Assembly (NCBI GenBank): GCA_963556075.3
Contig: CAUVYB020000002.1
Coordinates: 1,185,892 to 1,209,891 of the forward strand
Source: Oceanispirochaeta sp.
GTDB lineage: Bacteria; Spirochaetota; Spirochaetia; DSM-2461
Direction: 5' to 3'
Length of the DNA: 24,000 bases
Both the position numbers and the translations under genes were made by a program. Under the pieces are notes generated by a model. It had not been told where the DNA came from and searched no databases. It was given only the letters and a program-made list of their open reading frames with translations. Below are positions 5,529 through 21,523 of the stretch, one piece after another. The first letter of the stretch is position 1. Each line of letters opens with the position of its first letter.

Positions 5529-5577
5529 GAGTTAATCTATACTAACCAGCTTATATTTCAATGAGACCTGCCTCCTT

Positions 5578-5587
5578 CCTCCGTCCC
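5578..5587 (+). repeat. Motif copy A: CCTCCGTCCC (extended CCTTCCTCCGTCCCT, 5574-5588)
   Basis: Exact 10-mer. The 15-mer is identical to copy C. It is intergenic, between feoA and dtxR. Confidence 0.9.
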
Positions 5588-5629
5588 TCTTTTACCCTTT
5601 ATCCCGGCCAACCGGCTTTACAGTCACGA

Positions 5630-5639
5630 CCTCCGTCCC
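5630..5639 (+). repeat. Motif copy B: CCTCCGTCCC (GACCTCCGTCCCTCT)
   Basis: Exact 10-mer, a direct repeat of copy A 52 bp downstream. Both are followed by TCT and both have GACCT upstream (directly abutting in B, 11 nt away in A). Confidence 0.9.
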
Positions 5640-5680
5640 TCTCTGGTCTTCCTCTCCACTTTGAGCTACAATAGATCAGT

Positions 5681-6385
5681 ATGTTCAAGGTGACTGATCA
5701 GGAGCTGCAGGAGCTTCAGAAAAAATTCCCCTCTGCACTGGGATATCTCTCCACTATACTTCTGATAGAAAGAGAGATCGGGACCGCGGGCAATGCCCGA
5801 CTGGCAGCAAGACTGGGCGTGTCCAAACCGGCTGCGAACCAGGCCATCGGCCGGTTGAAAAAGCTGGGTCTCACGGAGCAGGACCGTTACGGCGCCATTA
5901 TCCTTACCGCAGAAGGCAAACGCTACGCCTCTGCCGTGCTCCGCCGCCATTATCTGATCGAGCATCTGCTGATTACCAAGCTGGGTTATCCCTGGGAGAA
6001 GTCTGACGAAGAAGCCCAGAGACTTCAGGTTAACCTCTCCGAAGAGTTTACAGACTATCTCTGCGAATATTTCGGTCGTCCCGGAACCTGCCCCCACGGA
6101 AATCCGCTCCCCGGATCTGAAGATGAAGAAGCTTTACTCAGGGCCCCCCGCCTGCCCGAAGCCCCCACCGGGGCCAGAATAAAACTTTTAAGGATAACGG
6201 AAGAAGGGGAGAGTGCAGATGGCCTTCTCCGCTTCTGCCGCAGCCATGATCTTATGCCCGGACGATGGATGAGCGTTAAAAACAACTCAGCCGAAGGGGT
6301 AACTGTGGAAGTTCACAATGCAACGGTGCTTATTCCCCTGCAGTACGCCTCCTATATATGCTTTCAGCTCCTGGATGAAAACTGA
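5681..6385 (+). CDS. DtxR/MntR/IdeR-family metal-dependent transcriptional regulator with C-terminal FeoA/SH3-like domain
   Basis: The HTH is LAARLGVSKPAANQAIGRLKKLGL and the dimerisation/metal-site region is RRHYLIEHLL...CPHGNPLP. The C-terminal SH3-like domain includes ARIKLLRI...GRWMSVKN...VTVEV. It is divergent from feoAB. No obvious SD precedes ATG 5681, so the start is uncertain. Confidence 0.85.
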   Translation: MFKVTDQELQELQKKFPSALGYLSTILLIEREIGTAGNARLAARLGVSKPAANQAIGRLKKLGLTEQDRYGAIILTAEGKRYASAVLRRHYLIEHLLITKLGYPWEKSDEEAQRLQVNLSEEFTDYLCEYFGRPGTCPHGNPLPGSEDEEALLRAPRLPEAPTGARIKLLRITEEGESADGLLRFCRSHDLMPGRWMSVKNNSAEGVTVEVHNATVLIPLQYASYICFQLLDEN

Positions 6386-6416
6386 TGATTCGATTCACTT
6401 TTTCAGGGATGGAAAT

Positions 6417-7031
6417 ATGGGTAGAATAAACTGGAAACCGGGCAATATGATCTATCCCATTCCTGCCGCTCTGGTGAGCTGCGGGACAGCCGAATCAGGA
6501 TATAATCTGATCACTGTTTCCTGGACAGGAACCGTCTGCACCAATCCCCCTGTATGTTATATATCCCTCAGACCCGAAAGACTTTCCCATGAGATTATCA
6601 GCAGAGAGCGGGAGTTCGTTATCAATCTGAGTACGGAATCCATGGCTAAAGCAACCGATTGGTGCGGGGTTAAATCAGGCCGGGATTTCGACAAATTTTC
6701 CGAATGCGGCTTAACGCCGCTTCCCGCAAAAGAGATCAAGGCCCCTCTTGTTGCGGAATCACCGGTAGCTGTGGAATGCCGGGTACGTGAGATAAAAGAG
6801 CTGGGAAGTCATGACATGTTTCTGGCAGACGTGGTCAACGTTAGTGTAGATGAACGCTATATGGATCCTGAAACGGGAGCCTTTGACATGCACAGAGCCC
6901 GGCTGATCGCCAGTGCTCATGGAAAATACTGCGGGCTGAAATATCCCATGGGCCATTTCGGATACTCCATCAGAAAGAAGAAGCAGAAAAAGAAGAGACG
7001 GCGTCACTCAACGGCGGATCCATCCTCCTGA
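6417..7031 (+). CDS. Flavin reductase-like (FMN-binding split-barrel) protein
   Basis: MGRINWKPGNMIYPIPAALVSCG...NLITVSWTG...FVINL...SGRDFDKF matches the flavoredoxin/flavin reductase family pattern. The track start 6318 would overlap the regulator gene. ATG 6417 follows its stop codon and an AGGGATGG purine run. Confidence 0.8.
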   Translation: MGRINWKPGNMIYPIPAALVSCGTAESGYNLITVSWTGTVCTNPPVCYISLRPERLSHEIISREREFVINLSTESMAKATDWCGVKSGRDFDKFSECGLTPLPAKEIKAPLVAESPVAVECRVREIKELGSHDMFLADVVNVSVDERYMDPETGAFDMHRARLIASAHGKYCGLKYPMGHFGYSIRKKKQKKKRRRHSTADPSS

Positions 7032-8203
7032 TCCTCAAGAGCATTCTCATAAAAATCTTCGACCGCCCACATCATTCTGTAGTCGGGCCAGCCGAACATA
7101 AGAGTCTCACAAAGATCAATCTTTCTCTCCCGGTCACCCATCATGTGCCATGCCAATAGCTCCTGATAGATAATCTCAGGCAGAAAAGGATCCTCAGCCA
7201 ACTCGCTCCGGGCCCGGACGGATATAGAGATCATTCCCTCATACATTCGCAGGACCTCTTTGCGATCTTCGAAGTACTCATCCGCTTTCGAAGCGATCTC
7301 CCACATAACCGTCTGGGCATGCCAGAGGGCCTGAGCACGACTGCTGCTCCACCCCAGTTCCGGCTCCTTCTCCAGAAGGGCTGTCAGGTCACTGTAATCC
7401 CTGCCCTCCCGAGCCCTCTCCGAGACAAGATCTCCCCAGCTTTTAAAAGGAACCGTATCCGCCTGCCTGAGAAGGTTGGCCAGACGGCTGTAGAGCTGAT
7501 TCAGCTCACGCTGATACCGTGCTTTTCTAAACTCCTTCAGGAAGCGGTAGCTCTCTTCAAGACTTTCACGGGGACGGAGGAAGGCGGGATCCTGACGAAG
7601 AGCCTCTCGAAAGTCAGCGGCAGCCTGTTCATACTCTGCCAAATCCAGGGACAGCAAGCCCTCGTAGTAGAGTCGAAGAGCCTCACGGGAGGAAGAGATC
7701 CCGTCACTTATATCCGGAATCCCATAATACTCCCCGAGACCGGCGGCCAGAGCAGCCTCCAGGTCTTGATAAGCCTCACTTACCGCCTTTTTTTTCATCG
7801 AAAAGAGGATCTCTCCGCTTTCGGTATCCGTAATACGACAGTTGACTTCCAGAGTTCCGTTTCTAACCGTATAGCTGCCCCTTACAAGCTGGCGAACGTT
7901 CAGAATTCGCCCCAGTTCCAGAGCATCCTGATCATCGGTCAGACCGCTAAGCCCCAGTTTCTGCTCTCTGAGTACAGCTTCAAGATCTTCTCTCTCCACG
8001 ATAGTTAATAAAGGAGAATTCAATCGTGATGTCAGACCGTCAGCAAAGGCCCGTGCCATCCACTGATGCTCATCATCCTGAACAGTATTGATAAAATGAA
8101 GGATAGAGACGACCGGTTTTTCATCTGATTCCTGAGAAAAGACAGCGAAAGCAGAGCTCAATAAAAGAAAGAGGACTCCGATCTGACGCATTTGGGGATT
8201 CAT
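7004..8203 (-). CDS. Secreted protein: N-terminal FlgO/TolB-N/CsgG-like domain plus C-terminal TPR/helical domain
   Basis: The signal peptide is MNPQMRQIGVLFLLLSSAFAVFSQ. The N-terminal pattern is VVSILHFINTV...FADGLTSRL...IVEREDLEAVLREQKLGLSGL...LGRILNVRQLVRGSY...LEVNCRITDTESGEILFS. A TPR-like segment follows (ALRLYYEGLLSLDLAEYEQAAADFREALRQDPAF). Its start overlaps the upstream gene's stop (ATGA). Confidence 0.6.
   Translation of the reverse strand: MNPQMRQIGVLFLLLSSAFAVFSQESDEKPVVSILHFINTVQDDEHQWMARAFADGLTSRLNSPLLTIVEREDLEAVLREQKLGLSGLTDDQDALELGRILNVRQLVRGSYTVRNGTLEVNCRITDTESGEILFSMKKKAVSEAYQDLEAALAAGLGEYYGIPDISDGISSSREALRLYYEGLLSLDLAEYEQAAADFREALRQDPAFLRPRESLEESYRFLKEFRKARYQRELNQLYSRLANLLRQADTVPFKSWGDLVSERAREGRDYSDLTALLEKEPELGWSSSRAQALWHAQTVMWEIASKADEYFEDRKEVLRMYEGMISISVRARSELAEDPFLPEIIYQELLAWHMMGDRERKIDLCETLMFGWPDYRMMWAVEDFYENALEDQEDGSAVE
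7571..7580 (-). repeat. Motif copy G: GGGACGGAGG on the plus strand (GGGACGGAGGAAGG, 7571-7584)
   Basis: Exact 10-mer. The 14-mer is identical (reverse complement) to copies A and C. It lies inside CDS 7004..8203, where the sense strand reads ttc ctc cgt ccc (F-L-R-P). Confidence 0.9.
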
Positions 8204-9048
8204 GGGTGGTTCAGATAGTCCCTGATTTCTGAAGCAAAGGCTTCGTCTTCACGCAGCTGCTCAAAAATCTTGAAAGCAGCCCGTTCCCGGGCCTGCTCGT
8301 AATTCAGTCCCCCTCCCTTGACAGGGCCGTATTCAGTACTGATGATCAGAAGACCGTAATGATAAAAGCTTACAATGCCTCTGAGGCTTGAAAAATAGAT
8401 CCCTCCGGTTTCATCAAGAGTCGGATAATCCGAAACGATCCAGTCCAAGGTGATCTCAAAGGGAGTATTTCTGGCACCGGGAAGGAGCTGCAGGGAAAGA
8501 TCTTTACGTCCCAGCTCTGTCAGAAAGGACATATTGAAACCACCCTGATCCTCAAGGCCTCTGGGTGAAGGAACGGCAGCGCGCCTGTCATTTTTCTTCT
8601 GAGAACTCCAGTCCTCCCGGCTCATGCGGATAAGCACCCAGTATCCCTTTTCAGTCCCATACCAGCCCTCCACGGTTTGAACATTCACGAGACTCTGTTC
8701 AACCGACTGCTTAACACGCTGATCCAGTGATTCGGAGATACTACCGTCGGCGGATGTTTTTATCTGACTCTCCAGAGTCGATACAATTTCTACAGAGATG
8801 GATGAGGCAAGGTCGGCGCGGGCCCGGGTTAGAGCGGTCTCCCTGTCTGCCGCCTCGTTATTGGTATGCGCTCCTCCTATACCATAATACCATTGATCGT
8901 CGGCGGGGGGAGTCGTGAGCCATTTAGGTTCAGGATCTTCAACCGGCAGAACAGGGACAACAGATGTTGTCGATGTACAGCTGCCCAGCATAAGAATCGA
9001 TATCATGAAAAAAGTATTCATATATTTAACGATGGAACGCTTCATCAT
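8200..9048 (-). CDS. LPP20/FlgP-like lipoprotein
   Basis: The signal peptide carries lipobox LMLGSC. It is followed by KWLTTPP...WYYGIGGAHTNNEAADRETALTRARADLASSISVEIVS, the pattern of the LPP20 lipoprotein family. A 4-bp ATGA overlap joins it to the downstream gene. Confidence 0.65.
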   Translation of the reverse strand: MMKRSIVKYMNTFFMISILMLGSCTSTTSVVPVLPVEDPEPKWLTTPPADDQWYYGIGGAHTNNEAADRETALTRARADLASSISVEIVSTLESQIKTSADGSISESLDQRVKQSVEQSLVNVQTVEGWYGTEKGYWVLIRMSREDWSSQKKNDRRAAVPSPRGLEDQGGFNMSFLTELGRKDLSLQLLPGARNTPFEITLDWIVSDYPTLDETGGIYFSSLRGIVSFYHYGLLIISTEYGPVKGGGLNYEQARERAAFKIFEQLREDEAFASEIRDYLNHP

Positions 9049-9138
9049 CTTCCTCTTCGTACCTGGTGATTATTCTGATTATAGACCGGAGCCGGATAAT
9101 CTTCCAGCCAAGGGTTGCAAATCTCATTTAGATGAAAG

Positions 9139-9166
9139 TTGAAATAAATTCTTTACCACCCAGCCT
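9139..9166 (+). promoter_or_regulatory. Possible heat-shock (sigma32-like) promoter upstream of lon
   Basis: TTGAAA (9139-9144), a 14-nt spacer, then CCCAGCCT (9159-9166) resembles the proteobacterial CTTGAAA-N13-15-CCCCATnT consensus. Whether this organism has such a sigma factor is unknown. Confidence 0.25.
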
Positions 9167-9204
9167 GTGATTAGTATTTTTCATCCTGAAATGAGGTAAA
9201 AAGT

Positions 9205-11631
9205 ATGAACGAACTGAAAACACTTCCCGAAGAACTTCCCCTTGTCCCCATGAAAGGATCTATTCTTTTTCCAGAGGGAATGAGCAGCGTCAGAATCAGT
9301 GGCTTGAGAGAAGATGAGGCGGCCTTCAGTGAGGCCAACCCATCCGGCTTGGCCGCCGCTGTTTCACTGAAAAAGAACTTCAACCTGAATGAACTTGAAT
9401 CGGAAGATTTTTTCACAATAGGAACTCTGGTATTTATCGAAAATGCAGAGCATAAAAACAACGAGCTCCATCTGAAACTCAGTGGAGTTCAGCGGATAAA
9501 GATCAACCATATAGAAAGGCGGGGAAAGATATACTACACCCGTGTTGAATCCCTGCCCGATCAGGATGACATGGACATGACATCCCGTAATGCCATGGCG
9601 GAGAATATGAAAATCCTGGCCGCTGAAATTGCCTCCTACTTTGAGGGGACAGAACAGGCCATGAAGCAGCTGAAGCTGCTGCACCATCCAGCCTCCCTGA
9701 TGAACAATATTGTTCCCTATCTGAATATTTCACGATCGGAGAAGCAGGAACTTCTGGAAATATCCTCCATCAGAGAGAGAGGCCTGAAAACTCTTGACCA
9801 TATGGTTAAACAAAGAGAATCTTTTAAACTTCAGGCAGAAATAGCCGGAAGGATGACCGAAACAGCCAGTCGCAACTACCGGGAGAATGTACTGAGAGAG
9901 CAGCTTAAGGTCATTCAGAAAGAATTGAATGAAGGCAAAGCGGGGACGGAGGAAGAGGACGGGCAGGATCTCCGCTCCAGAATTGAAGCCTCCGATATGC
10001 CTGAAGATGTAAGAAAGACAGCTTTTAAAGAGCTGAATAACCTTGAAGAACAGCCTCCCAACAGCCCTGAAACCAGGATTATCCGTAATTATCTTGATCT
10101 GCTCCTGGATCTGCCATGGAAAAGTGAAGACTGCGGAATCATCGATTTAAATAAAGCCCGCCGTATACTGGACAGTCAGCACTACGGACTGGAAAAGGTC
10201 AAGAAAAGAATAATTCAGCATCTGGCTGTTATGAAGCTCAAAAACGACAAGAAAGGCTCTATCCTATTGCTGGTCGGTCCTCCGGGAACCGGAAAAACAA
10301 GTCTTGGTAAAAGCATTGCAGAAGCCCTGAACAGGAAATACGTTCGCATAAGCCTGGGAGGTGTTCGTGATGAGGCTGAAATCCGTGGTCACAGACGGAC
10401 CTATATAGGAGCCCTGCCGGGACGAATCCTCAAAGGCATGAAGAAGGCGGGAACACGAAACCCCGTATTCGTTCTGGATGAGGTAGACAAATTGATGCAG
10501 TCTTTCAGCGGTGATCCCGCCGGGGCCCTTCTGGAAGTACTGGATCCCGAGCAGAACGACAGCTTTTCAGATCACTACCTTGAACTGTCCTACGACCTCT
10601 CGGATGTTTTTTTTGTGGCCACGGCCAACAGCCTGGAAAGCATTCCCGGCCCCCTGCTGGATCGCATGGAAGTGATACCCCTTTCGGGATACACCAATCC
10701 TGAAAAGTTCCGTATAGGAAAAGACCATCTGATCCCGGCGGTTCTTGAGGATCACGGCCTGTCGGAAACACAGATGGTGATTGAAGATGAAGCTCTGAAC
10801 GAGGTAATTGAAAACTACACAAGAGAGGCTGGAGTCAGGAACCTGAAACGTAAAATTGCAGAGCTGGCCCGGGCAGTTACGGAGGAGGTGGTTTCTGACG
10901 ATGTGGAGCTTCCTGTACGGATCAAGGCGGAAGATGTGGAAGACTATCTCGAAAATCAGAAAATTCACAGAGAGCAGATCGGAAAAATGAATCCTCCCGG
11001 CGTAGTGACAGGCATGGCCTGGACCCCGGTGGGAGGGGAGATCCTTTTTGTAGAATCAACCGCCATGCCCGGAAGCGGAGGGTTGACCATCACGGGCCAG
11101 CTAGGCGATGTGATGAAGGAGTCAGCAAGGATATCTCTGAGCCTGATCCGCTCACGGCTCACACCTTTTACAGCTAGCTTCTCGTTCAAAGAACAGGATA
11201 TCCACATCCATGTCCCCTCTGGAGCTGTTCCCAAAGACGGCCCCTCGGCAGGAGTTGCCATGATGACTTCACTGGCCTCTCTGATCACAGGCATCCCCGT
11301 CGATTCCAGACTGGCCATGACCGGCGAAGTCACCCTCCGAGGCGCTGTTACCCCCGTCGGAGGTGTTAAAGAAAAAGTTCTGGCGGCCCACCGCGCGGGA
11401 ATCCGAAAAATAATTCTCCCCACTGAAAACGTAAAAGACCTGAAAGAGCTGCCTGAGGAGATCCGCAGCGACCTGGAAGTCATCTCTGTTGATCACATCA
11501 GTACAGTACTGAATACCACGCTGGGCCTTGAAGTGTACGAAATAAATAAAAATACAGGGACGGAGGAACTAAACAAGAGAGACCGCCCTGATTCTTCAGG
11601 TCTAGAGACAGGAATGACTTCAAATTATTAA
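9205..11631 (+). CDS. lon: ATP-dependent Lon protease (LonA)
   Basis: The 808-aa protein has an N-terminal LON substrate-binding domain, Walker A GPPGTGKTS and Walker B VFVLDEVDK. The catalytic Ser lies in PKDGPSAGVAM and the catalytic Lys in GGVKEKVLAAHRAG. Confidence 0.97.
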   Translation: MNELKTLPEELPLVPMKGSILFPEGMSSVRISGLREDEAAFSEANPSGLAAAVSLKKNFNLNELESEDFFTIGTLVFIENAEHKNNELHLKLSGVQRIKINHIERRGKIYYTRVESLPDQDDMDMTSRNAMAENMKILAAEIASYFEGTEQAMKQLKLLHHPASLMNNIVPYLNISRSEKQELLEISSIRERGLKTLDHMVKQRESFKLQAEIAGRMTETASRNYRENVLREQLKVIQKELNEGKAGTEEEDGQDLRSRIEASDMPEDVRKTAFKELNNLEEQPPNSPETRIIRNYLDLLLDLPWKSEDCGIIDLNKARRILDSQHYGLEKVKKRIIQHLAVMKLKNDKKGSILLLVGPPGTGKTSLGKSIAEALNRKYVRISLGGVRDEAEIRGHRRTYIGALPGRILKGMKKAGTRNPVFVLDEVDKLMQSFSGDPAGALLEVLDPEQNDSFSDHYLELSYDLSDVFFVATANSLESIPGPLLDRMEVIPLSGYTNPEKFRIGKDHLIPAVLEDHGLSETQMVIEDEALNEVIENYTREAGVRNLKRKIAELARAVTEEVVSDDVELPVRIKAEDVEDYLENQKIHREQIGKMNPPGVVTGMAWTPVGGEILFVESTAMPGSGGLTITGQLGDVMKESARISLSLIRSRLTPFTASFSFKEQDIHIHVPSGAVPKDGPSAGVAMMTSLASLITGIPVDSRLAMTGEVTLRGAVTPVGGVKEKVLAAHRAGIRKIILPTENVKDLKELPEEIRSDLEVISVDHISTVLNTTLGLEVYEINKNTGTEELNKRDRPDSSGLETGMTSNY
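9943..9952 (-). repeat. Motif copy H: GGGACGGAGG on the plus strand (GGGACGGAGGAAG)
   Basis: Exact 10-mer inside lon, read in frame as ggg acg gag gaa (G-T-E-E). Confidence 0.9.
11557..11566 (-). repeat. Motif copy I: GGGACGGAGG on the plus strand (AGGGACGGAGGAA)
   Basis: Exact 10-mer in the 3' end of lon, again in frame as ggg acg gag gaa (G-T-E-E). It lies 275 bp from the RAYT-like gene's stop and is inverted relative to copy C. Confidence 0.9.
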
Positions 11632-11690
11632 AAAAATCAAATCAAGAGAACTGATTTATATGCTTTTATTCTGATTTCAAATTGATTCCA

Positions 11691-11732
11691 GGGCATGACT
11701 TCTTTATTAAAGAAGTCATGCCCTTTTTCTTT
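11691..11732 (+). terminator. Rho-independent terminator of lon
   Basis: GGGCATGACTTCTTTA-T-TAAAGAAGTCATGCCC forms a perfect 16-bp inverted repeat (11691-11723), followed by TTTTTCTTT. Confidence 0.85.
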
Positions 11733-11841
11733 ACACTTTTTATTACACCTTCTTCTACAAAAAGAAAAGAACCGGTTACAGAGAGGAAAAAAACTCTCTT
11801 CGTGAGTATGAATAAAAAAAAGAAGAGAATGATCACAGAAC

Positions 11842-12336
11842 TCAAACCGAGATCAGATATAACCATGCATTTAAAGGGTCCAGTAGCCTGAGCCGCTTCT
11901 TATGCAGTTCATAAAGGCCTCCGTAGGCATAATTCCAGGCATCTGTACAGATCCCAGCCTTAACAGGGTTATTGGAGATGTACTGAAAAGCATGAATTAA
12001 GTGCCTAAAACTACCGATGATCTTACTCTTGAAACGATCATACCAGACATGACCTTTCTGTCCATGCATTTTATTAAACCGGATAGCAAAAACGGCCAGA
12101 ATCCACTGCATTAATTTGGAGAGACTGGTCCCCTGCCCCGGCTCAATTACAAGATGAACATGATTACTCATTATGCAAAAGTGTTTAAGTTTGAAATCAT
12201 ACTTCCATTTTGCCTTCTCCAGAATGCGAAGGAACATCTCTTTCATCTCATCTGACTTCAGGATGAACTCTCCTCTATTTGTTTTTGCCACTACATGATA
12301 AGTGGCCCCCTCCTGGATAACTCTTGCGCTTCTCAT
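11842..12336 (-). CDS. IS200-like HUH-Y1 transposase family protein, RAYT-like (solitary, no tnpB)
   Basis: The 164-aa protein has GATYHVVAKTNRGEFIL, the HUH motif in SNHVHLVIEP, GHVWYDRFKSKII, and the catalytic Tyr region FQYISNNPVKAG. It is a single gene in an AT-rich spacer with no accessory ORF. Confidence 0.8.
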   Translation of the reverse strand: MRSARVIQEGATYHVVAKTNRGEFILKSDEMKEMFLRILEKAKWKYDFKLKHFCIMSNHVHLVIEPGQGTSLSKLMQWILAVFAIRFNKMHGQKGHVWYDRFKSKIIGSFRHLIHAFQYISNNPVKAGICTDAWNYAYGGLYELHKKRLRLLDPLNAWLYLISV

Positions 12337-12407
12337 GTCTCTTATACTTCAAAAAAGAAGATGCTGCTTCAATTTTTATTGAAAAAATATAAAAAGAGGC
12401 TTTCCTT

Positions 12408-12417
12408 CCTCCGTCCC
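12408..12417 (+). repeat. Motif copy C: CCTCCGTCCC (CCTTCCTCCGTCCCT, 12404-12418)
   Basis: Exact 10-mer. The 15-mer is identical to copy A. It is intergenic, 71 bp upstream of the RAYT-like start codon. Confidence 0.9.
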
Positions 12418-12476
12418 TGTGCACCCGCCTGTTACGAACAGAAATGAGGATTTTTATTAAGTGAGACTGTAATAGG

Positions 12477-12506
12477 TTGACAAATAGTTAAACAAGGAAC
12501 AATATT
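12477..12506 (+). promoter_or_regulatory. Sigma70-type promoter of the XRE-cupin gene
   Basis: TTGACA (12477-12482), an 18-nt spacer, then AATATT (12501-12506). AGGAG lies 5 nt before ATG 12549. Confidence 0.35.
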
Positions 12507-12548
12507 ACTCAACTGTTAAATTATACTTAAAGAGTTTCAGGAGCAATA

Positions 12549-13121
12549 ATGGAACGACCCGAATACAGATTCGGTGAGAAGATCAGGGAGATAAGGGAAA
12601 GTCAGTCTGTTACCTTAAAACAGTTAGCAGAGAAGATGGATGTCAGCGTCAGCCTTCTGTCACAGATAGAAAACAATAAAGTCTCTCCCTCCATCGATAC
12701 CCTATTGAACCTGGCCGACCTTCTGGATATTGATCCAGAGTATCTGTTCAGGGATTTCCGGAAGAAACGAAAAGTACGGATTGTTCGTGCAGAAGAGCGG
12801 AACCGATTAAGCATGGGAACCGTCCAATATGAGCTGCTTACCCCTCCGGTTGCTCCGGATGAGGAGTTTGCTCTTGAGACGATGGAGCTGATAATTGCCC
12901 CGGGAGGGGAGAAAGGGAGCCAGGACTATGGACACCCCGGTCGGGAGATGGGAATTATCCTTTCTGGAAAGGGAGAGCTTCAGTACGGAACCGAAACATA
13001 CGATCTGAATGCAGGAGACAGCCTGACCTTTTCTTCCTCCGTCCCCCATACACTGGTGAATAAGGGACGGGAAGAGTTGAAGGCGGTCTGGATCATCACC
13101 CCGCCGCGCCTGTTCAGCTGA
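12549..13121 (+). CDS. XRE-family HTH transcriptional regulator with C-terminal cupin sensor domain
   Basis: The HTH is LKQLAEKMDVSVSLLSQIENNKVSPSIDTLLNLADLL. The cupin region is GHPGREMGIILSGKGELQYG...YDLNAGDSLTFSSSVPHTLVN. Confidence 0.9.
   Translation: MERPEYRFGEKIREIRESQSVTLKQLAEKMDVSVSLLSQIENNKVSPSIDTLLNLADLLDIDPEYLFRDFRKKRKVRIVRAEERNRLSMGTVQYELLTPPVAPDEEFALETMELIIAPGGEKGSQDYGHPGREMGIILSGKGELQYGTETYDLNAGDSLTFSSSVPHTLVNKGREELKAVWIITPPRLFS
13036..13045 (+). repeat. Motif copy D: CCTCCGTCCC (CTTCCTCCGTCCCC)
   Basis: Exact 10-mer inside the cupin CDS, read as tcc tcc gtc ccc (S-S-V-P). An inverted partial partner GGGACGG lies at 13064-13070. Confidence 0.9.
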
Positions 13122-13247
13122 AAAACAGAGCTGATAAAAAATGGAAAAGCCCCGTCATGCACGGGATAAAACCCTTAGGCCGTTCTGCCCTAAGAGGATA
13201 AACTGACAAGGCTCCTGTGGAGCCTCAGTAGTGGAGAGGAGTTATTT

Positions 13248-14534: not shown

Positions 14535-14539
14535 TACAC

Positions 14540-15076
14540 ATGAGCGATAAGAAAACTTTCAAAGGCAAGGTCCTTTTTCTGGACCGCAGCGATATCAATA
14601 CGGATGAAATCATCCCTGCAAAATATCTGACAGAGATCACCAAAGAGGCCCTGAAACCCAACCTCCTTGAAGATCTGAAGATGGACGGCTTTGATCCGGC
14701 AAATGATCTGGAGGGAATCAGCGTTATCATCACCCGGAGCAACTTCGGCTGCGGTTCTTCCCGCGAGCATGCTCCCTGGGCTCTTGAGGTGAATGGCATC
14801 AATCTTGTGATAGCTGAGAATTTCGCCAGGATCTTCCGTCAGAATATGTATAACTGCGGAATGATGGCCGTGGAACTTTCAGCCGGTGAGATCGACTCCC
14901 TGTTCAAAGACTTTGCAGGGGCCTCCGATACGGAGCTGAGTACGAACCTTGAAGAAGGAGAGTTCACCATTTCCGGCAGCGGAAAAAGCCGAACACTCCC
15001 CTTCAGCATTTCCGGTTTTGACCGGACGCTGGTTGAGGCAGGCGGATGGGTCGGTTACGCTGATAGTAAGTATTAA
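14540..15076 (+). CDS. leuD: Aconitase-family dehydratase small subunit (LeuD type)
   Basis: The 178-aa swivel-domain protein contains SNFGCGSSREHAPWAL. It starts 5 nt after the large-subunit stop. Confidence 0.8.
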   Translation: MSDKKTFKGKVLFLDRSDINTDEIIPAKYLTEITKEALKPNLLEDLKMDGFDPANDLEGISVIITRSNFGCGSSREHAPWALEVNGINLVIAENFARIFRQNMYNCGMMAVELSAGEIDSLFKDFAGASDTELSTNLEEGEFTISGSGKSRTLPFSISGFDRTLVEAGGWVGYADSKY

Positions 15077-15078
15077 AT

Positions 15079-15088
15079 CCTCCGTCCC
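15079..15088 (+). repeat. Motif copy E: CCTCCGTCCC (ATCCTCCGTCCCTT)
   Basis: Exact 10-mer, starting 3 nt after the leuD stop codon (TAA 15074-15076). Confidence 0.9.
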
Positions 15089-15129
15089 TTAAGGAAGAAC
15101 ACAACATAATAATCAGTTCGGATAAATCG

Positions 15130-15162
15130 AAACCCGGGTGCGTGCCCGGGTTTCCTCTTTTC
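15130..15162 (+). terminator. Rho-independent terminator after leuD
   Basis: AAACCCGGG-TGCGTG-CCCGGGTTT forms a hairpin at 15130-15153, followed by CCTCTTTTC. Confidence 0.6.
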
Positions 15163-15308
15163 AGTCATATTATTCATTTTAGTCCTAATAAAGGGCTATC
15201 CATCGATCTCTGACTGGTCAAACAGTCAATTTTCTAAAAAAATCCTTTTTCTCTGATGAATTCCCCGTTAAACTGAAATATTAAAAGCACTACAAAGGAG
15301 TCATTTTT

Positions 15309-16697
15309 ATGAGTCAAATCAAGGTCGACATCATCTATGGCCTGGAGGACCGTCCATCTGCACCTCAGGCATTCTTTGCTGCTCTCCAGCATATGATGGC
15401 TATTTTCATCGGAATCGTCACACCGGCGATTGTCATCAGCGGAGCCCTGGGGCTGAGCACAGAACTCTCCGCCTACCTGGTCAGCATGTCACTCTTCGTT
15501 TCAGGCCTGGCCACTTTTATCCAGTGCCGCAAGTTCGGCCCCGTCGGCTCGGGACTCCTGAGTATTCAGGGAACCAGCTTTACCTTTCTCTCTCTCTGTA
15601 TCGGAATCGGTTTCGCCGTCAAGAACAGCGGAGGGACGGAGGCACAGATGGTAGCCGCCATTTTCGGGACCTGTCTGATCGCCTCTCCCGTGGAGATGAT
15701 CTTCAGCCGCTTCATCCCCCTTCTGAAAAGGATTATCACTCCCCTGGTCAGCGGTATCGTTGTCACCCTGATAGGTATGTCCCTGATAAAGGTGGGAATT
15801 ACCGATATCGGCGGCGGAGCCTGGCTGCTGAGCAACAAACCTGAAATTTTTGCCAATCCCCGGAACCTGATGCTCGCCGGAATTGTTCTGGTAGTGATCA
15901 TAATCTTTAACAGAAGCGCCAACAAATGGCTGAGGATGGGCGCCATCGTTTTCGGTCTGATAGCCGGCTATGTAGTCGCCTCTATACTGGGTCTTGTACA
16001 GTTCGGAAAGATATCCACCCTGAAGGCTATCGCTCCCCCCATCCCCTTCCGCTACGGATTCAATATCAGCTGGCCCCACCTTATCCCCATGTGCCTGCTC
16101 TACCTGATCACAACTGTAGAATCTATCGGAGACCTGACGGCCACTTCCATGGTATCCGGACAGCCTGTTGAGGGTGATGTCTATATGAAGAGAATCTCCG
16201 GCGGTGTTCTGGGAGACGGTATCAACTCCGCACTGGCCGCAGTCTTCAACTCTTTCCCCAACACGACCTTCAGCCAGAACAACGGAGTCATACAGATGAC
16301 CGGTGTAGCCAGTCGCTATGTGGGATTCTGGATCTCAGGACTTCTTGTCCTCTTCGGCCTGTTCCCCATCGTCGGCGGTCTGTTCTCCATCATTCCCAAC
16401 GCTGTACTGGGCGGAGCCACCATCATCATGTTCGGAACTGTTGCGGCTTCGGGTATCAGGATAATCTCCTCCAGTATCATCGACAGAAGAGGAGTCATCA
16501 TCATGGCCCTCTCCTTCGGACTGGGACTGGGTGTCGTGTTCGTTCCCCAGATTCTGAACCACTTCCCCCCCTTCCTGAAATCCGTGTTCGGTTCTGCCAT
16601 CACCACCGGCGGTCTGACAGCGATTTTCCTCAACATCGTTCTTCCCAGAAGCTTTAAGAAGCAGCCCATGGATGAGCCCATGAAGGATATGGTCTGA
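15309..16697 (+). CDS. NCS2-family nucleobase:cation symporter (xanthine/uracil-type permease)
   Basis: The 462-aa polytopic protein has the N-terminus YGLEDRPSAPQAFFAALQHMMAIF and a later segment TTFSQNNGVIQMTGVASRYV, both typical of NCS2 purine/uracil permeases. AAGGAG lies 9 nt upstream of the start. Confidence 0.88.
   Translation: MSQIKVDIIYGLEDRPSAPQAFFAALQHMMAIFIGIVTPAIVISGALGLSTELSAYLVSMSLFVSGLATFIQCRKFGPVGSGLLSIQGTSFTFLSLCIGIGFAVKNSGGTEAQMVAAIFGTCLIASPVEMIFSRFIPLLKRIITPLVSGIVVTLIGMSLIKVGITDIGGGAWLLSNKPEIFANPRNLMLAGIVLVVIIIFNRSANKWLRMGAIVFGLIAGYVVASILGLVQFGKISTLKAIAPPIPFRYGFNISWPHLIPMCLLYLITTVESIGDLTATSMVSGQPVEGDVYMKRISGGVLGDGINSALAAVFNSFPNTTFSQNNGVIQMTGVASRYVGFWISGLLVLFGLFPIVGGLFSIIPNAVLGGATIIMFGTVAASGIRIISSSIIDRRGVIIMALSFGLGLGVVFVPQILNHFPPFLKSVFGSAITTGGLTAIFLNIVLPRSFKKQPMDEPMKDMV
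15633..15642 (-). repeat. Motif copy J: GGGACGGAGG on the plus strand
   Basis: Exact 10-mer inside the permease CDS, read in frame as ggg acg gag gca (G-T-E-A). Confidence 0.9.
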
Positions 16698-16768
16698 GAA
16701 CTCCCTGTCCTCTGTCCGATTTGAATATCTTGTAAAAGATAAGGTCTTTAAAAGAGACAAAGCTTACA

Positions 16769-16795
16769 CTCCCCGCAGAGCTGCGGGGAGTTTTT
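16769..16795 (+). terminator. Rho-independent terminator after the permease gene
   Basis: CTCCCCGCAG-AG-CTGCGGGGAG is a perfect 10-bp inverted repeat followed by TTTTT. It lies between convergent genes. Confidence 0.8.
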
Positions 16796-16819
16796 CAGGC
16801 ATACAGCTTTCAAACAGAC

Positions 16820-17377
16820 TCAACGGGAACTCATAAGAAACTCGTTGGAAACATCCACAAGCGCCCTGTCTGACAGAAAATCCCTGCCCAGAATAAGAGG
16901 AAAGGTCATATGCCGTCTGTTGGTCAGATTAAAGGAGAGTCTCAGTGAATATCGTCCAAGACGGATATCCAGATTCACAACGGGTCTTTCACTGATATTT
17001 ACCGAACCGGCCTGATGGATATGTACAAACCTCTCCACCCGCCGCTCCATAATCCTGTCCGTACCGTCAAAGTCGAGATTAAAACGGACCCAAACCTCTC
17101 CATCCCGTTCAAATCTCTGAATCTGTGAAGCATGAAGAGAGGAGAAGGCGGCGCCGCTGTCAACTCTGGCGACAAGAAAGGTCCCCTCAGCCGGAAAATA
17201 GACCATCTCCCTGGCGCCGACGACAATCTTCTCCTCTCCCTTGGAATTCACAAACGGATCGGGAGAGGGAAAAACGCTGCTTCCCGAAACGGCATCCTGT
17301 GCTCCCGCCGTGGAAAGCAGAACCAAACTGAGAAGCATTAAGAAAGCAATCCTGACAATCATTATCCTGAGGCTCAT
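16820..17377 (-). CDS. Secreted retropepsin-like aspartic peptidase (Zn_protease/DUF785, RimB-like family)
   Basis: VARVDSGAAFSSLHA (D-S-G), GEVWVRFNL and FPLILGRDFL match the family pattern. The predicted signal peptide is MSLRIMIVRIAFLMLLSLVLLSTAGAQD. The track start 17401 is TTG; I prefer ATG 17377, but the start is uncertain. Confidence 0.6.
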   Translation of the reverse strand: MSLRIMIVRIAFLMLLSLVLLSTAGAQDAVSGSSVFPSPDPFVNSKGEEKIVVGAREMVYFPAEGTFLVARVDSGAAFSSLHASQIQRFERDGEVWVRFNLDFDGTDRIMERRVERFVHIHQAGSVNISERPVVNLDIRLGRYSLRLSFNLTNRRHMTFPLILGRDFLSDRALVDVSNEFLMSSR

Positions 17378-17412
17378 GGGCTCATTGTGCCATATGATCA
17401 AGGATTCATCAC

Positions 17413-19137
17413 CTAGAACTCTGTAAAATCCTCATCGTCCTCAGCTCCCTCCGAGGGCCCCTGCAGGACTCTCTCCGGAGCAGGGACGCCCCTTGGGTCG
17501 TCTCCTCCACTCGCCGGCGCAGCCGCGATCTGCGTCTGTGTTTTTGCAACCGGTCCATCGGCAACCGGCACAGAAATATCTATGCCGGACTCCCCTGTAT
17601 GGAAGTAACCCACCATACGGGTCAGCTCTGCTGACTGGCTTTTCAGCTGATCGGCCATGGAGGCGATCTCCTCACTGGAAGCGGCATTGGCCTGAATAAC
17701 CTCATCCATCTGAATCAGAGCCGTATTGATCTGTTCAGCCCCTCTGGCCTGCTCGTTGCTTCCGGCAAAGATTTCCTCTGCGATATCGGCGGATTTCTTG
17801 ACCAGAGGCAGGATCTCCCGCATCTGATCCAGAGTATCATCGGCTTTTTTCACCGACTGAGAGGAGACCTGTGTGATATCATTGGCGGCAGCCTGGCTGT
17901 TTTCCGCCAGCTTCCTGACCTCCGAGGCCACCACGGCAAAGCCCTTGCCCGCCTCTCCGGCCCGGGCGGCCTCAATGGCGGCATTCAGAGCCAGAAGATT
18001 GGTATTCCGGGCGATATCCTCAATAATGCTTATCTTCTCGGAGATGAACTTCATGGAGCCGACCACCTCTTCTACGGAACTGCCGCTGCTCTCCGTACCG
18101 TCGGCGGCCCTGGAAACGATGGAGTTGGATTCCCGGGCATTATCCGTATTCTGCTGAATATTGGACGAAAGCTCCTCCATGGAAGCGGAAATTTCTTCGG
18201 CGCTGGCAGCCTGTTCATTGGCACCCGAAGCCACCTGCTGGGAAACATCCGCCACCTCCTGGGCATGCCTGTTGATAAGCAGAGCCGTTCCGGAAATACC
18301 CGAGACGATCCCCCGCAGCTGCTTCACCATATTGGCAATCGCATCGGAAAGGAGCCCCGTCTCATCATTGCTTTCTATACTGATATCAACAGTCAGATCG
18401 CCTCCCGCTATGGATGCCACATCTCTTGCCAGAAGCTCAACGGGCCGGGCAAGGCGGCTTCCCATCAGCCAGGCCAGAGCGAAGGCCGCAAGAACAACCA
18501 CAAGGTCCACCAGAAGCACAAGAAAAAGAGTTCTCCTGACGATGGCGTCGATTCCCTTCTGCTGTTCAGCCACCAGCTTATCAATATCGTCAATGTAGTT
18601 GCCCGTTCCCAGGAACCAGTCCCAGGGTTCGAAAAATGCAGTATAGGCCCGTTTGGGAGAAACCTCTGTCTCCCCGACCTTGTTGTAGTAGTAAGTCGTA
18701 TAGTGGGACCCCTCTTTGGCTGCCTTAATAAGATCACGGATAAGGTAGTTCCCCTGTTTATCCTGCAGATCCCAGCGGTTGGTTCCTTCGATGCTGTTAT
18801 CGGGCATTGAAATGGTCAGGCCTGTGGAGTCGTAGATAAAGATATACCCATCCTCCCCATAGCGCATTTCATCGATGATATCCCTGGCCATTTTCCGGGC
18901 CTGTTCCTCTCCCAGTTCTCCCCGTCTGTCATAGTAGGACTGAGCCACGGAAACGGCCATCTCCACTTCATAGCGGGACAGCACATCAAAGTCTTCTCTC
19001 AACGTCCGATCCAGAGTCGCCAGGTTTTCCGATCCCAGCCTCCGCAGCTCAATGGCCGAAAGAACACCCATAACCGCGCCCAGAAGGAGAAGAGAGCCAA
19101 GAACTAGAAAACTGATTTTAAATTTCATTTTAACCAT
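17413..19137 (-). CDS. Methyl-accepting chemotaxis protein with periplasmic single-Cache-like sensor
   Basis: The order is TM1, a Cache-like region ([11 protein letters not shown]...[15 protein letters not shown]), TM2, HAMP, then the signalling hairpin [37 protein letters not shown]. The track start 19146 is a GTG inside the SD GAGGTG; ATG 19137 lies 7 nt downstream of that SD. Confidence 0.93.
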
Positions 19138-19309
19138 AAAAAACACCTCGATTTTATTGTTCCCGACAAAAAACGCTACGTCTTCCTTTGTATTTTAATG
19201 TATTGAAAATGGTTTCTCAAATTTCCTCCCATAAAGCACCTCCCCTAATCCCTATCACACAAGAATTTAGAAGGATATAGCCCCTGAGTGATCAGTCAGC
19301 GGCAAATCA

Positions 19310-19338
19310 TAGACAGCCTTTCCCGGGGATTCTATAAT
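19310..19338 (+). promoter_or_regulatory. Sigma70-type promoter of hpt
   Basis: TAGACA (19310-19315), a 17-nt spacer, then a perfect TATAAT (19333-19338). Confidence 0.5.
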
Positions 19339-19423
19339 AGGGATGCCCTAAAGAGAGAGGATGGAGCCGAATGATTCGGCACTGTTGGAATTATGAAATC
19401 AATTTCCGTTTCCGGGAGGGGAG

Positions 19424-19957
19424 ATGACCAATTACCGAATTGACGTATTGATCGATGAGAAGAGCCTGGCAGCCAAGGTAGAGGCCCTGGGAAAAAAGAT
19501 TGAACAGGAGTACAGAAACGCCGAGGAGATTATCCTGGTAGGCCTTCTCAGGGGCTCCACCGTATTTCTCGCCGACCTGGCCCGCCATATAAATCTGGAT
19601 GCCCGTATAGACTTTATGGTGGTTTCAAGCTACGGCAACGCCATGGACTCCTCCCGGGATGTTCAAATAAAGAAGGACCTGGAAGAGGAAATCCGGGGCC
19701 GGCATGTGATTATTGTGGAAGACATCATTGACACAGGATATACCCTTGAGCGGGTCAAGGAGTTTCTGGAGCTCAGAGATCCCGCCTCCCTGAAAATCTG
19801 CACTCTTCTGGACAAACCCGACCGCCGGGAGGTGGATGTTCCCGTGGATTATGTCGGATTCACCATTCCCGACGTGTTCGTCATCGGCTACGGAATCGAC
19901 TATGCTCAGAAACACCGCAACCTTCCCTACGTTGGCAAAGTAGTTCCTCTGGACTGA
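19424..19957 (+). CDS. hpt: Hypoxanthine(-guanine) phosphoribosyltransferase
   Basis: The 177-aa protein has the PRPP-binding motif VIIVEDIIDTGYTL, plus LLRGSTVFLADL and FVIGYGIDY. GGGAGGGGAG precedes the ATG. Confidence 0.93.
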   Translation: MTNYRIDVLIDEKSLAAKVEALGKKIEQEYRNAEEIILVGLLRGSTVFLADLARHINLDARIDFMVVSSYGNAMDSSRDVQIKKDLEEEIRGRHVIIVEDIIDTGYTLERVKEFLELRDPASLKICTLLDKPDRREVDVPVDYVGFTIPDVFVIGYGIDYAQKHRNLPYVGKVVPLD

Positions 19958-20198
19958 GAATCAAGCGGCATCGTCCTGGGATGCCCGGGGCGTTCCCCCT
20001 GCCAAGTCAGGGGTCCTGCCTTGCGGGGGTTCCGTCTGAACGGCTGAATGCCCGTTCAGACCGCTTCGCGCCCCTCCAGTCAGTAACGCGAGAAACCGTA
20101 ATCCCAAGCCATCCTCCTTGCCTTGGGATCAGCTGACAAGCTCCGGGGAAGGAGTTATACTGAATCCTAATCCGCCATTCGGGAGTTTTATAATCAAA

Positions 20199-20888
20199 GT
20201 GAGAAGAGCTCTTTTTTTGATCATAGCGATCTCTCTCCTCAGCGCCCTGCCGCCGGCTCTGCCTGCTCTGGAATTCCAGAACGGTTACCGGCTGATACTG
20301 GGAGGCGGATTTCCTTCGGGAAAGGGGCTCTGGGACTGGACGGATACCAGCGAGAAGGGGACCCTTCACTGGGGACCGGCGGTTGGCGGAGGAGTCGTCT
20401 GCCTCTTCAATCTCAGAGAAGAAGCCTGCCATATAGAAACAGGTATAAACATAGTTCATCTGCGGGGAAAACAGAAGCTGGGGGACAGCCGCTACGAGTA
20501 TATGCAGAACACCATAGAGATTCCCGTACTGTACAAGACAAGACTACCCTTTCCCGACACCCATTTGTTTCTCGGAGGTGGTGCCGTGATGATGATCAAT
20601 CCCATAGAGGCGCGAAGAACGGAAACAACGGACGGAGAGGAAACAGAAATCTACTGTGAGCCGGATAACAAAGTCATGCTGGGTCTGCAGCTGGGACTGG
20701 ACTGGAAATTTATCAATAAGGAAGCCCATGACTGGATGCTTTCGCTCCACTACACCCATCCTTTGACCTCACCGGGATTCTCTTTCGAGGAAATGGGAAG
20801 CGGTAATATCCGGCTGAACAGGGCGGACCTGAGCTTTACCTATCTGTACACACCGGCGGCTGGCTTTCCCCGACGGAGTGTCCGATGA
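20199..20888 (+). CDS. Outer-membrane beta-barrel protein (paralog 1)
   Basis: The track start 20118 (TTG) lies inside a strong hairpin. GTG 20199, with GGGAG 13 nt upstream, gives VRRALFLIIAISLLSALPPALPALEF as a signal peptide. The body shows an alternating beta-strand pattern and ends in an aromatic-rich C-terminal strand (LSFTYLYTP). It is a paralog of the next gene. Confidence 0.55.
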   Translation: MRRALFLIIAISLLSALPPALPALEFQNGYRLILGGGFPSGKGLWDWTDTSEKGTLHWGPAVGGGVVCLFNLREEACHIETGINIVHLRGKQKLGDSRYEYMQNTIEIPVLYKTRLPFPDTHLFLGGGAVMMINPIEARRTETTDGEETEIYCEPDNKVMLGLQLGLDWKFINKEAHDWMLSLHYTHPLTSPGFSFEEMGSGNIRLNRADLSFTYLYTPAAGFPRRSVR

Positions 20889-21523
20889 AACGAAAAGCCC
20901 TGCTTCTGATGCTGCTGACCCTGACCGCCGCCCTGCAGGCCAGAACCTTCCGCTTCGGAGGAGAACTGGCCCTGGGAACAGCCATCGGAACAGGCAAGGG
21001 CTATTGGGACTGGACGGATAAATCCGAAGAGACGCTCCGAAATCCTTTTGTTTTCAACGGAGGAGGATCAATCCTCATACTGGCAGACCTCTCTCCCCTG
21101 TTCCAGCTGGAGACGGGAGTCGGCTACTTCGTAAACCGCTGCAAAATTGAAAATGACGGAGTCACCCTGATTTACAGACAGGACAGTCTGGATATCCCTC
21201 TGGGATTGAAGATGTTTTTCAGCAGAGATAAAAAAGGCCTGTATGTGAAGGGAGCGGCAGCCCTGATGATCCTCACAGACAGCGCCTCCTTCGCCGACGA
21301 GGACGGGGACGACGATCTATTTGCCTCCTCCGTCCCCGGACAGCGTTATCACGCCGGACTTATAACGGGAATGGGCTATCAGAAAGAGACGGCATACGGA
21401 CTCTGGCAGCTGGAAGCCCGCTATGCGAATTTCTATACTTCTCCCGACTATAAAAGGGAAGAAGGCACCCTGGGAGACGTGCGTTACCACAGGATACAGA
21501 TGGCCGTCGGCTGGTTTTACTGA
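20885..21523 (+). CDS. Outer-membrane beta-barrel protein (paralog 2)
   Basis: The signal peptide is MKRKALLLMLLTLTAALQA. It shares the motif GKGYWDWTDKSE with paralog 1 and ends in MAVGWFY, an OMP-type C-terminal aromatic residue. ATGA overlaps the stop of paralog 1. Confidence 0.65.
   Translation: MKRKALLLMLLTLTAALQARTFRFGGELALGTAIGTGKGYWDWTDKSEETLRNPFVFNGGGSILILADLSPLFQLETGVGYFVNRCKIENDGVTLIYRQDSLDIPLGLKMFFSRDKKGLYVKGAAALMILTDSASFADEDGDDDLFASSVPGQRYHAGLITGMGYQKETAYGLWQLEARYANFYTSPDYKREEGTLGDVRYHRIQMAVGWFY
21327..21336 (+). repeat. Motif copy F: CCTCCGTCCC (CCTCCTCCGTCCCC)
   Basis: Exact 10-mer inside OMP paralog 2, read as tcc tcc gtc ccc (S-S-V-P, the same frame as copy D). An inverted partial partner GGGGACG lies at 21305-21311. 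Confidence 0.9.

Follow-up and report, generated by a model that had tools for sequence, protein, structure and literature searches.

Genes of the window and a recurrent ten-nucleotide word

The window analysed here is a stretch of 24,000 nucleotides (nt) of Oceanispirochaeta sp. (GenBank assembly GCA_963556075.3, contig CAUVYB020000002.1, positions 1,185,892 to 1,209,891). Its genes include feoA/feoB, a DtxR-like gene, a CsgG-like lipoprotein gene, the protease gene lon, a small gene predicted to encode a transposase of the RAYT family (REP-associated tyrosine transposases, REP being repetitive extragenic palindromes), a gene for a regulator with helix-turn-helix (HTH) and cupin domains, the gene for the small subunit of aconitase, a xanthine/uracil permease gene and an outer-membrane beta-barrel gene. 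The 10-mer CCTCCGTCCC, the commonest of the window, occurs in ten exact copies (six on the plus strand and four on the minus strand) in several of these genes and in the spacers. The initial annotation had reported the ten copies as over-represented; all were located again at the same coordinates and on the same strands, and 100 dinucleotide-preserving shuffles of the window gave an expected count of 0.06 and never more than one, so that the enrichment is approximately 170-fold. Sites with one mismatch number two against 2.7 expected, and since this is chance level, the word is very sharply defined in the window. The near-copies of 7-8 nt that had been added to the family at positions 459, 2814, 21593 and 23428 differ from the 10-mer by more than one mismatch and were set aside.

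Longer identities had been described for subsets of the copies, and TTCCTCCGTCCC (six times) and CTTCCTCCGTCCC (five times) were recounted. The base that follows the word is a pyrimidine in every copy, and TT is preferred before it. A comparison of the surroundings of the copies had been proposed to see whether a longer element would emerge; when 50 nt on each side were aligned, nothing was conserved beyond TT-core-Y. Across all loci considered below, the general form of the motif is SCTCYGTCCC (reverse complement GGGACRGAGS). The window contains no Rfam family among those searched, and the only occurrences of the exact word found in a literature search were eukaryotic coincidences (terminal inverted repeats of plant Stowaway/mariner elements, and microRNAs). 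A role as terminator or promoter was also rejected: no copy lies on a convincing terminator, and a weak match at 12412-12395 is the spacer beside the copy that precedes the RAYT gene.

The gene map agrees with the placement of four copies in spacers and six within five unrelated coding sequences (CDSs). In the spacer between feoA/feoB and the DtxR-like gene, two copies 52 nt apart (5578-5587 and 5630-5639, both plus strand) form a direct pair, of which the second is conserved at the orthologous position, 6306, of the closest relative's locus, L123. Another intergenic copy (15079-15088, plus strand) lies 2 nt past the stop codon of the gene for the small subunit of aconitase, and the fourth (12408-12417, plus strand) precedes the RAYT gene. 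Within genes, the preferred contexts G-T-E (three times) and S-S-V-P (twice) had already been noticed, and F-L-R-P is the sixth context. The F-L-R-P copy (7571-7580, minus strand) belongs to the CsgG-like gene (CDS 7004-8203) and has an orthologue at position 8352 of L123. Two G-T-E-E copies lie in lon, one (9943-9952, minus strand) within a 9-nt insertion, GGGACGGAG, that is common only to the window and L123, and the other (11557-11566, minus strand) in a lineage-specific C-terminal tail, downstream of the RAYT gene. The remaining copies are in the HTH-cupin regulator gene (13036-13045, plus strand; S-S-V-P), the xanthine/uracil permease gene (15633-15642, minus strand; G-T-E-A) and the outer-membrane beta-barrel gene (21327-21336, plus strand; S-S-V-P; CDS 20885-21523), the last being the farthest from the RAYT gene, at 9 kb.

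The RAYT gene and its cassette

The RAYT gene (11842-12336, minus strand) encodes a predicted protein of 164 amino acids (aa) of the HUH/Y1 type, with the HUH motif NHVH and the tyrosine motif YISNNP. The protein matches Pfam Y1_Tnp (E = 7e-18) and passes the NCBIfam model REP_Tyr_transpos (NF047646) with 82.2 bits at a cut-off of 80, but remains below the cut-off of the IS200 model (32.9 bits versus 55). It aligns with the Escherichia coli transposase TnpAREP (PDB 4er8), including the HUH and tyrosine motifs. By these sequence criteria the product of 11842-12336 is a member of the RAYT family and not an IS200 transposase. A paralogous RAYT (P0025) of 182 aa, 68% identical to that of the window, is encoded elsewhere on this 5.0-Mb contig.

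Inverted copies of the word bracket the RAYT gene in the window, in L123 and in L002, a RAYT locus in another genomic context, and degenerate inverted copies do so in L001, a further RAYT locus in another context. A transposase gene between inverted repeat copies is the arrangement of REPtrons and TIRtrons. In the window, one copy lies 72 nt ahead of the RAYT ATG, where the coding strand of that gene reads GGGACGGAGG, and the copy in the tail of lon is its inverted counterpart; together they are the terminal inverted repeats of an inserted REPtron/TIRtron-like cassette of about 0.86 kb (11557-12417, minus strand).

The edges of this cassette were placed by comparison with syntenic loci that lack a RAYT gene. 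At the 3′ end of lon, homology to the RAYT-less loci is lost within approximately 3 nt of the motif in L123, and in the window it ends 21 nt further from the motif than in L123; on the cupin side, homology is back 17-40 nt past the motif. The edges of the cassette coincide with the motif. The comparison shows that the cassette entered between lon and the cupin regulator gene before this organism and its closest relative diverged.

The last 25 or so codons of lon and the terminator hairpin behind it (11690-11724) come from the RAYT cassette (window 11540-11724). In relatives that lack the cassette, lon has another, shorter tail and is followed by a terminator of their own. Through this insertion, an essential protease gene has thus acquired a new 3′ end from the mobile unit.

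Many loci share a conserved box, TTGAAGCA(GC), that precedes the RAYT start codon and lies approximately 30-60 nt downstream of the upstream motif copy (for example, 12355-12365 on the minus strand of the window and L002:9965-9975). The box may belong to the RAYT promoter, as its -35 region, or be an element of the 5′ untranslated region. Apart from this box, nothing else is conserved in the upstream region when 67 upstream copies are compared.

Relatives with and without the RAYT gene

By homologues of its RAYT and of lon, the organism falls among marine Spirochaetales close to Oceanispirochaeta. L123, from the closest relative, is syntenic with the window, with lon 86% identical and a RAYT gene at the same place. 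It has eight copies of the word in 15.6 kb (four on each strand). Four of these are orthologous to copies of the window: the 10-mer is intact in all four, coding flanks are approximately 80-85% identical (estimated by eye), and the flanks of those in spacers hardly align. The syntenic loci L124/L125 and L126, where lon is 77% and 75% identical, respectively, have the cupin gene directly after lon and no RAYT gene; they contain no exact copy in 22 kb each and zero to two copies with one mismatch. The eight solitary sites that the window has beyond the two of the cassette are spread over roughly 16 kb, and none of them is present in the relatives without the cassette.

Beyond this synteny group, L002 contains seven copies, and the word is again its top 10-mer; L001 contains three exact copies, and its RAYT gene has degenerate ones to either side. 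The RAYT proteins of L001 and L002 are 74-75% identical to that of the window. The preference for flanking bases is lineage-specific: TT precedes the word in the window, AA in L002. Two loci in RAYT-bearing genomes were examined far from the RAYT gene: L127, the lon locus of the 1.86-Mb contig that also carries L002, 283 kb from the RAYT gene there, contains no copy in 22 kb, and L128, the lon locus of another RAYT-bearing genome, likewise contains none in 22 kb. Since the syntenic loci without a RAYT gene and the far loci are all empty, the word follows the RAYT gene rather than phylogeny, and is unevenly distributed along the chromosome that carries L002. As a negative control, a scan was made with the 14-mer CCTTCCTCCGTCCC; among the matches listed, unrelated phyla carry single chance copies.

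RAYT loci in metagenomes

Metagenome contigs were scanned with an alignment of 31 RAYT homologues, which yielded 80 loci. Their RAYT proteins are 41-70% identical to that of the window, and their G+C contents range from 25% to 59%. Around these genes, 590 kb of sequence contains 301 copies of the exact word against approximately one expected; 557 kb of non-redundant sequence contains 273. Only two single-base variants are frequent in the 557 kb, C to G at position 1 (61 sites) and C to T at position 5 (24 sites), and the other 28 together account for 47 sites, near chance.

The region upstream of the RAYT start was analysed in 84 loci (the window, L123, L001 and L002 in addition to the 80 metagenomic ones). 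Of the copies no more than 600 nt ahead of the start codon, 63 are in one orientation and five in the other, and the upstream copy sits 40-370 nt (mostly 50-230 nt) before the ATG. The number of copies per locus varies widely: L172, L186 and L199 have only those that flank the RAYT gene, and L136 and L175 have 25-31 copies in 20 kb. In L144 (25% G+C), a neighbouring gene has its closest named relatives in Spirochaetota. No relatives of the RAYT were found on viral contigs.

Distance from the RAYT gene

In each of four loci, the copies are nearer to the RAYT gene than a uniform distribution would place them (p = 0.007-0.023). A profile of copy density by distance was computed from 35 flanks, each 9 kb or longer and all used in every bin, which keeps the mix of loci constant. 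The density is 2.2 copies per kb at 0-0.5 kb from the RAYT gene, about 0.70 per kb at 1-5 kb and about 0.39 per kb at 5-9 kb, and the difference between the latter two bins (98 copies versus 54) is significant (paired Wilcoxon p = 0.0006). The decay in density and the empty far loci together describe a cloud of copies centred on the RAYT gene, which extends over more than 10 kb in some genomes.

Copies within genes

Of 226 copies in 36 loci, 145 lie inside long open reading frames (ORFs), in all three phases and both orientations; the density of copies in spacers is nevertheless about three times that inside ORFs. The origins of several genic copies were read from codon alignments with orthologues that lack the motif. 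In lon, near codon 247, the copy arose by a clean insertion of 9 nt, GGGACGGAG, beside a pre-existing GAAGAG. Other copies kept the length of the gene: in the CsgG-like gene, F-Q-x-P of the relatives became F-L-R-P with approximately six of nine nucleotides altered; the permease copy differs from its motif-less orthologues by three synonymous changes at third positions, the cupin copy by two or three substitutions within a conserved motif, and a copy in feoB of L123 by two changes. More length-preserving cases are found between L175 and L192, two loci that at 65% identity are too divergent for clean calls of fresh insertions. The copies in housekeeping genes differ from the motif-less orthologues at the motif only, and the neighbouring codons are conserved.

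The sites also change slowly once they exist. L175 and L187 are 88% identical overall; at the eight fixed positions of the motif they differ by 2.4%, and in the flanks by 10.5%. The copies thus evolve about four times more slowly than their flanks.

Two rearrangements between copies were observed in pairs of related loci. L175 and L187 (alignment columns 14999-15032) differ by a deletion that runs precisely from one direct copy to the next, 33 nt away, so that a single hybrid copy remains. L167 and L165 (99.3% identical; column 9750), compared in search of fresh insertions, showed only a 28-nt motif-bearing unit upstream of the RAYT gene that is present twice in one and once in the other. Slippage or site-specific excision between copies could account for both.

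The copy in the cupin gene has an imperfect inverted near-copy, GGGACGGGAAGAG, 22 nt further on, with which it would form a weak hairpin within the CDS (window 13036-13080, z = -2.4). This hairpin is only partly kept in L123.

Comparison with known repeat systems

The nearest described counterpart is the class of RAYT-like genes flanked by terminal inverted repeats (TIRs) that are not REPs and share the consensus GGGGWSAS; such units were named TIRtrons and their proteins TIRYTs, and they come with moderately abundant families of solo repeats (Di Nocera et al. 2013, PMC3733652). The system of the window likewise places a RAYT-like gene between inverted repeats that are not REP hairpins, and has a family of solo copies, often in pairs or clusters. 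The word begins GGGGAC, and the variant GGGGACAG, which is found in L001 and is frequent in L175, L187, L189, L190 and L196, fits GGGGWSAS, a comparison made with the consensus only. The main form, GGGGACGG, is one base off this consensus, at position 7. Further differences from TIRtrons are that 10-11 nt are conserved here instead of a "long TIR", that approximately 60% of the copies are in ORFs, that the same word recurs over RAYT proteins 41-70% identical to that of the window, and that the density of copies decays from the gene. Most TIRYTs have been equated with TnpAY1 subclass 2.1, in which the protein has a median length of 238 aa and a C-terminal HTH domain, and subclasses 2.1 and 2.3 were reported to lack associated repeats (Quentin et al. 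2018, PMC6006769). The protein of the window has 164 aa, and its motifs NHVH and YISNNP are nearest to those of subclass 2.4.

With REPtrons such as E. coli TnpAREP and the REPINs of Pseudomonas, the system shares the enzyme family, a low-copy gene flanked by its own inverted repeat, and many solo copies of the repeat that are conserved over evolutionary time. The repeats themselves differ. REPs are imperfect palindromes that can fold into a hairpin, with a GT[AG]G (or CGTC) foot, in extragenic locations, and six of the ten copies of the window are in CDSs. Of ten copies that were folded, nine have no hairpin that involves or adjoins the motif; the only clear one is at L001:2873, and the copy at 13036 pairs weakly. 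No complementary flank is conserved in 28 copies or in 67 upstream copies. The motif contains no GTAG or GTGG, and its internal CGTC is not followed by a stem. REPINs are inverted doublets, but of the close pairs here (up to 200 nt apart) 62 are direct and 22 inverted. REPIN-associated RAYT groups have been defined by a 16-mer criterion (PMC5581495), and the conserved unit of 10 nt here is below its reach.

Two other systems resemble the word in single respects. RPEs (Rickettsia palindromic elements) and other intragenic REPs occur in frame within functional genes, in regions that tolerate them (PMC3733652), and the word likewise lies in frame inside protein-coding genes; RPEs, however, are palindromic insertions of 100-150 bp, whereas the unit here is 9-10 nt and many copies arose without a change in length. 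Elements of the IS200/IS605 family have a related HUH/Y1 transposase, act on single-stranded DNA and recognise short specific sequences. Membership of the system in that family was rejected: besides the score of the protein below the cut-off, there are no subterminal hairpins and no multiple identical copies, the two paralogues of this genome being only 68% identical. The RAYT/TIRYT system described here accordingly differs from its relatives in the repeat, which is 10 nt long, non-palindromic, widely conserved, mostly intragenic, constrained and centred on the gene.

Interpretation and alternatives

The explanation favoured here, with a probability of roughly three in four, is that the 10-mer is the DNA site cognate to a HUH transposase of the RAYT/TIRYT type, which with its cassette forms an atypical REPtron or TIRtron whose sites spread locally. 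Solo sites appeared in a lineage-specific manner, the association with the RAYT gene has a fixed orientation in many independent loci, copies are more frequent in proximity to the gene, and the sites are conserved. The initial annotation had considered that the word might be the conserved seed of a REP- or MITE-like element (miniature inverted-repeat transposable element) linked to the adjacent RAYT-like gene; the link to the RAYT gene was essentially right, and the longer REP or MITE around the seed does not exist. It had also allowed that the copies might be fragments of one longer, degraded mobile element confined to this region. They are indeed concentrated around the RAYT gene, but they are not pieces of such an element.

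HUH enzymes read sites of approximately 10 nt, and the RAYT would recognise the 10-mer as single-stranded DNA. It would act preferentially near its own gene, in cis, and thereby generate the solo copies. New sites may be seeded by short insertions, such as the 9 nt in lon, or converted by replacement of near-matches. Within genes, only in-frame, tolerated outcomes would survive, and sites once made would be retained.

As domesticated transposases, RAYTs are widespread; what they do and how they act is still debated, and several subclasses have been reported to have no associated repeat (PMC6006769, PMC5581495). Earlier surveys sought either hairpins or abundant extragenic 16-mers, and were thus blind to a non-palindromic, intragenic word of 10 nt. 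The RAYT clade described here offers a sharply defined candidate substrate, conserved over Spirochaetota-like hosts of very different base composition. The sites enter and persist within essential genes and are retained through selection or some homogenising process, and their distance-dependent distribution around the RAYT gene points to action in cis. For annotation, the lesson is that one small transposase gene can leave as its footprint a striking word that resembles an uptake signal.

Several points weigh against this explanation. Binding, cleavage and mobilisation of the motif by the RAYT are all inferred from comparison of sequences. The motif has no accompanying hairpin here, unlike the classical substrates of RAYTs, which are hairpins with a GT[AG]G foot. 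The length-preserving copies (in the permease, cupin, FeoB and CsgG-like genes) are not directly explained by cut-and-paste of an element, and directional selection or some other drive could be their source. The density of copies is still high out to 10 kb in L136 and L175. The controls far from a RAYT gene consist of two loci of 22 kb, and counts for the genome of the window itself cover the window; the motif may also be common far from the RAYT gene in this genome.

A more specific and decidedly speculative version of the explanation, of fairly low probability, would make the RAYT a local "writer" of its own site of 9-10 nt, which inserts the 9-mer or overwrites near-matches on single-stranded DNA near the gene. 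If so, the cloud of exact sites that thins out over roughly 5-10 kb, with its in-frame edits of neighbouring housekeeping genes, would record a natural short-patch sequence conversion, and the minimal substrate of this RAYT would need no hairpin. No transposase is known to perform short-patch sequence conversion.

Causality may also run in the opposite direction, from the motif to the RAYT gene: the word may be a site with a function for the host, such as the binding site of a chromosomal protein, that was merely targeted by the RAYT cassette. This account would accommodate the insertion of IS200/IS605 family members beside a specific short sequence, the purifying constraint on the sites, and the many copies that arose by substitution in conserved genes. 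It is nonetheless unlikely, for orthologous regions without the cassette hold no sites, which means that the sites arose in the same lineage as the cassette. Moreover, the cassette has the motif at each end, in inverted orientation, rather than as one flanking target, three loci have no copies other than those that flank the RAYT gene, and the decay with distance is centred on that gene.

Introgression would explain the cloud as an imported tract, the RAYT gene having arrived with several kb of flanking DNA from a motif-rich donor. The distribution of the RAYT gene is patchy relative to the phylogeny of lon, as horizontal transfer would make it, and tracts of variable length could yield a decay with distance. 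The flanking genes, however, are in conserved synteny, and the identities of lon are graded as in vertical descent, from 86% with L123 to 75-77% with the RAYT-less loci. An imported tract is also at odds with housekeeping genes that depart from their motif-less orthologues at the motif alone, and with flank preferences that are specific to each lineage, so that introgression is improbable.

The initial annotation had leaned towards a genome-wide motif, either an uptake signal like the DUS (DNA uptake sequence) of Neisseria and the USS (uptake signal sequence) of Pasteurellaceae, which would accumulate through preferential uptake by competent cells, or an element of genome architecture. The resemblance to uptake signals is real: the word is short, non-palindromic and sharp, without a halo of mismatched copies; it occurs on both strands; within genes it is tolerated in a few preferred peptide contexts, often by point substitution at near-matches; and it has flanking "dialects" by species (TT here, AA in L002). 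An uptake signal would, however, hardly take up a fixed position and orientation upstream of a transposase gene (63 copies versus five), and the word, linked to and concentrated around that gene, decays in density away from it, is absent from the orthologous loci of close relatives and, over 22 kb each, from distant loci of two RAYT-bearing genomes, and tracks the RAYT over hosts of 25-59% G+C instead of following a taxon. A genome-wide motif of either kind is not supported by the loci compared, and an uptake signal in particular is very unlikely. A polar motif for chromosome architecture or recombination, of the Chi or KOPS type, would also be an over-represented G-rich or C-rich oligomer, but can be dismissed almost entirely given the lack of strand polarity (six copies versus four in the window, where 17 of 24 kb have a negative GC skew and the cumulative skew falls almost steadily, and four versus four in L123), an enrichment of approximately 170-fold that is far above that of Chi or KOPS, and the linkage to the RAYT gene.

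Other words at related loci

One contig of a metagenome-assembled genome, L053, contains the 10-mer many times within a microsatellite of TCCGTCCC/TCCC (L053:2360-2720), a low-complexity sequence unrelated to the finding; the genome is labelled Metamycoplasmataceae and the contig has 49% G+C, so contamination of the bin is possible. Two more distant RAYT genes have other words around them. At L207:4800-13600, a RAYT 45% identical to that of the window, in a host of 25% G+C, is accompanied by no SCTCYGTCCC but by nine copies of AACACAGAT within approximately 5 kb, which may be the different cognate word of a different RAYT lineage. At L208:1-3291, a RAYT that is also 45% identical lies amid 15 copies of CCGTCCCC within longer repeats of approximately 25 nt, which suggests that CGTCCCC (GGGGACG) is the most deeply conserved part of the motif.

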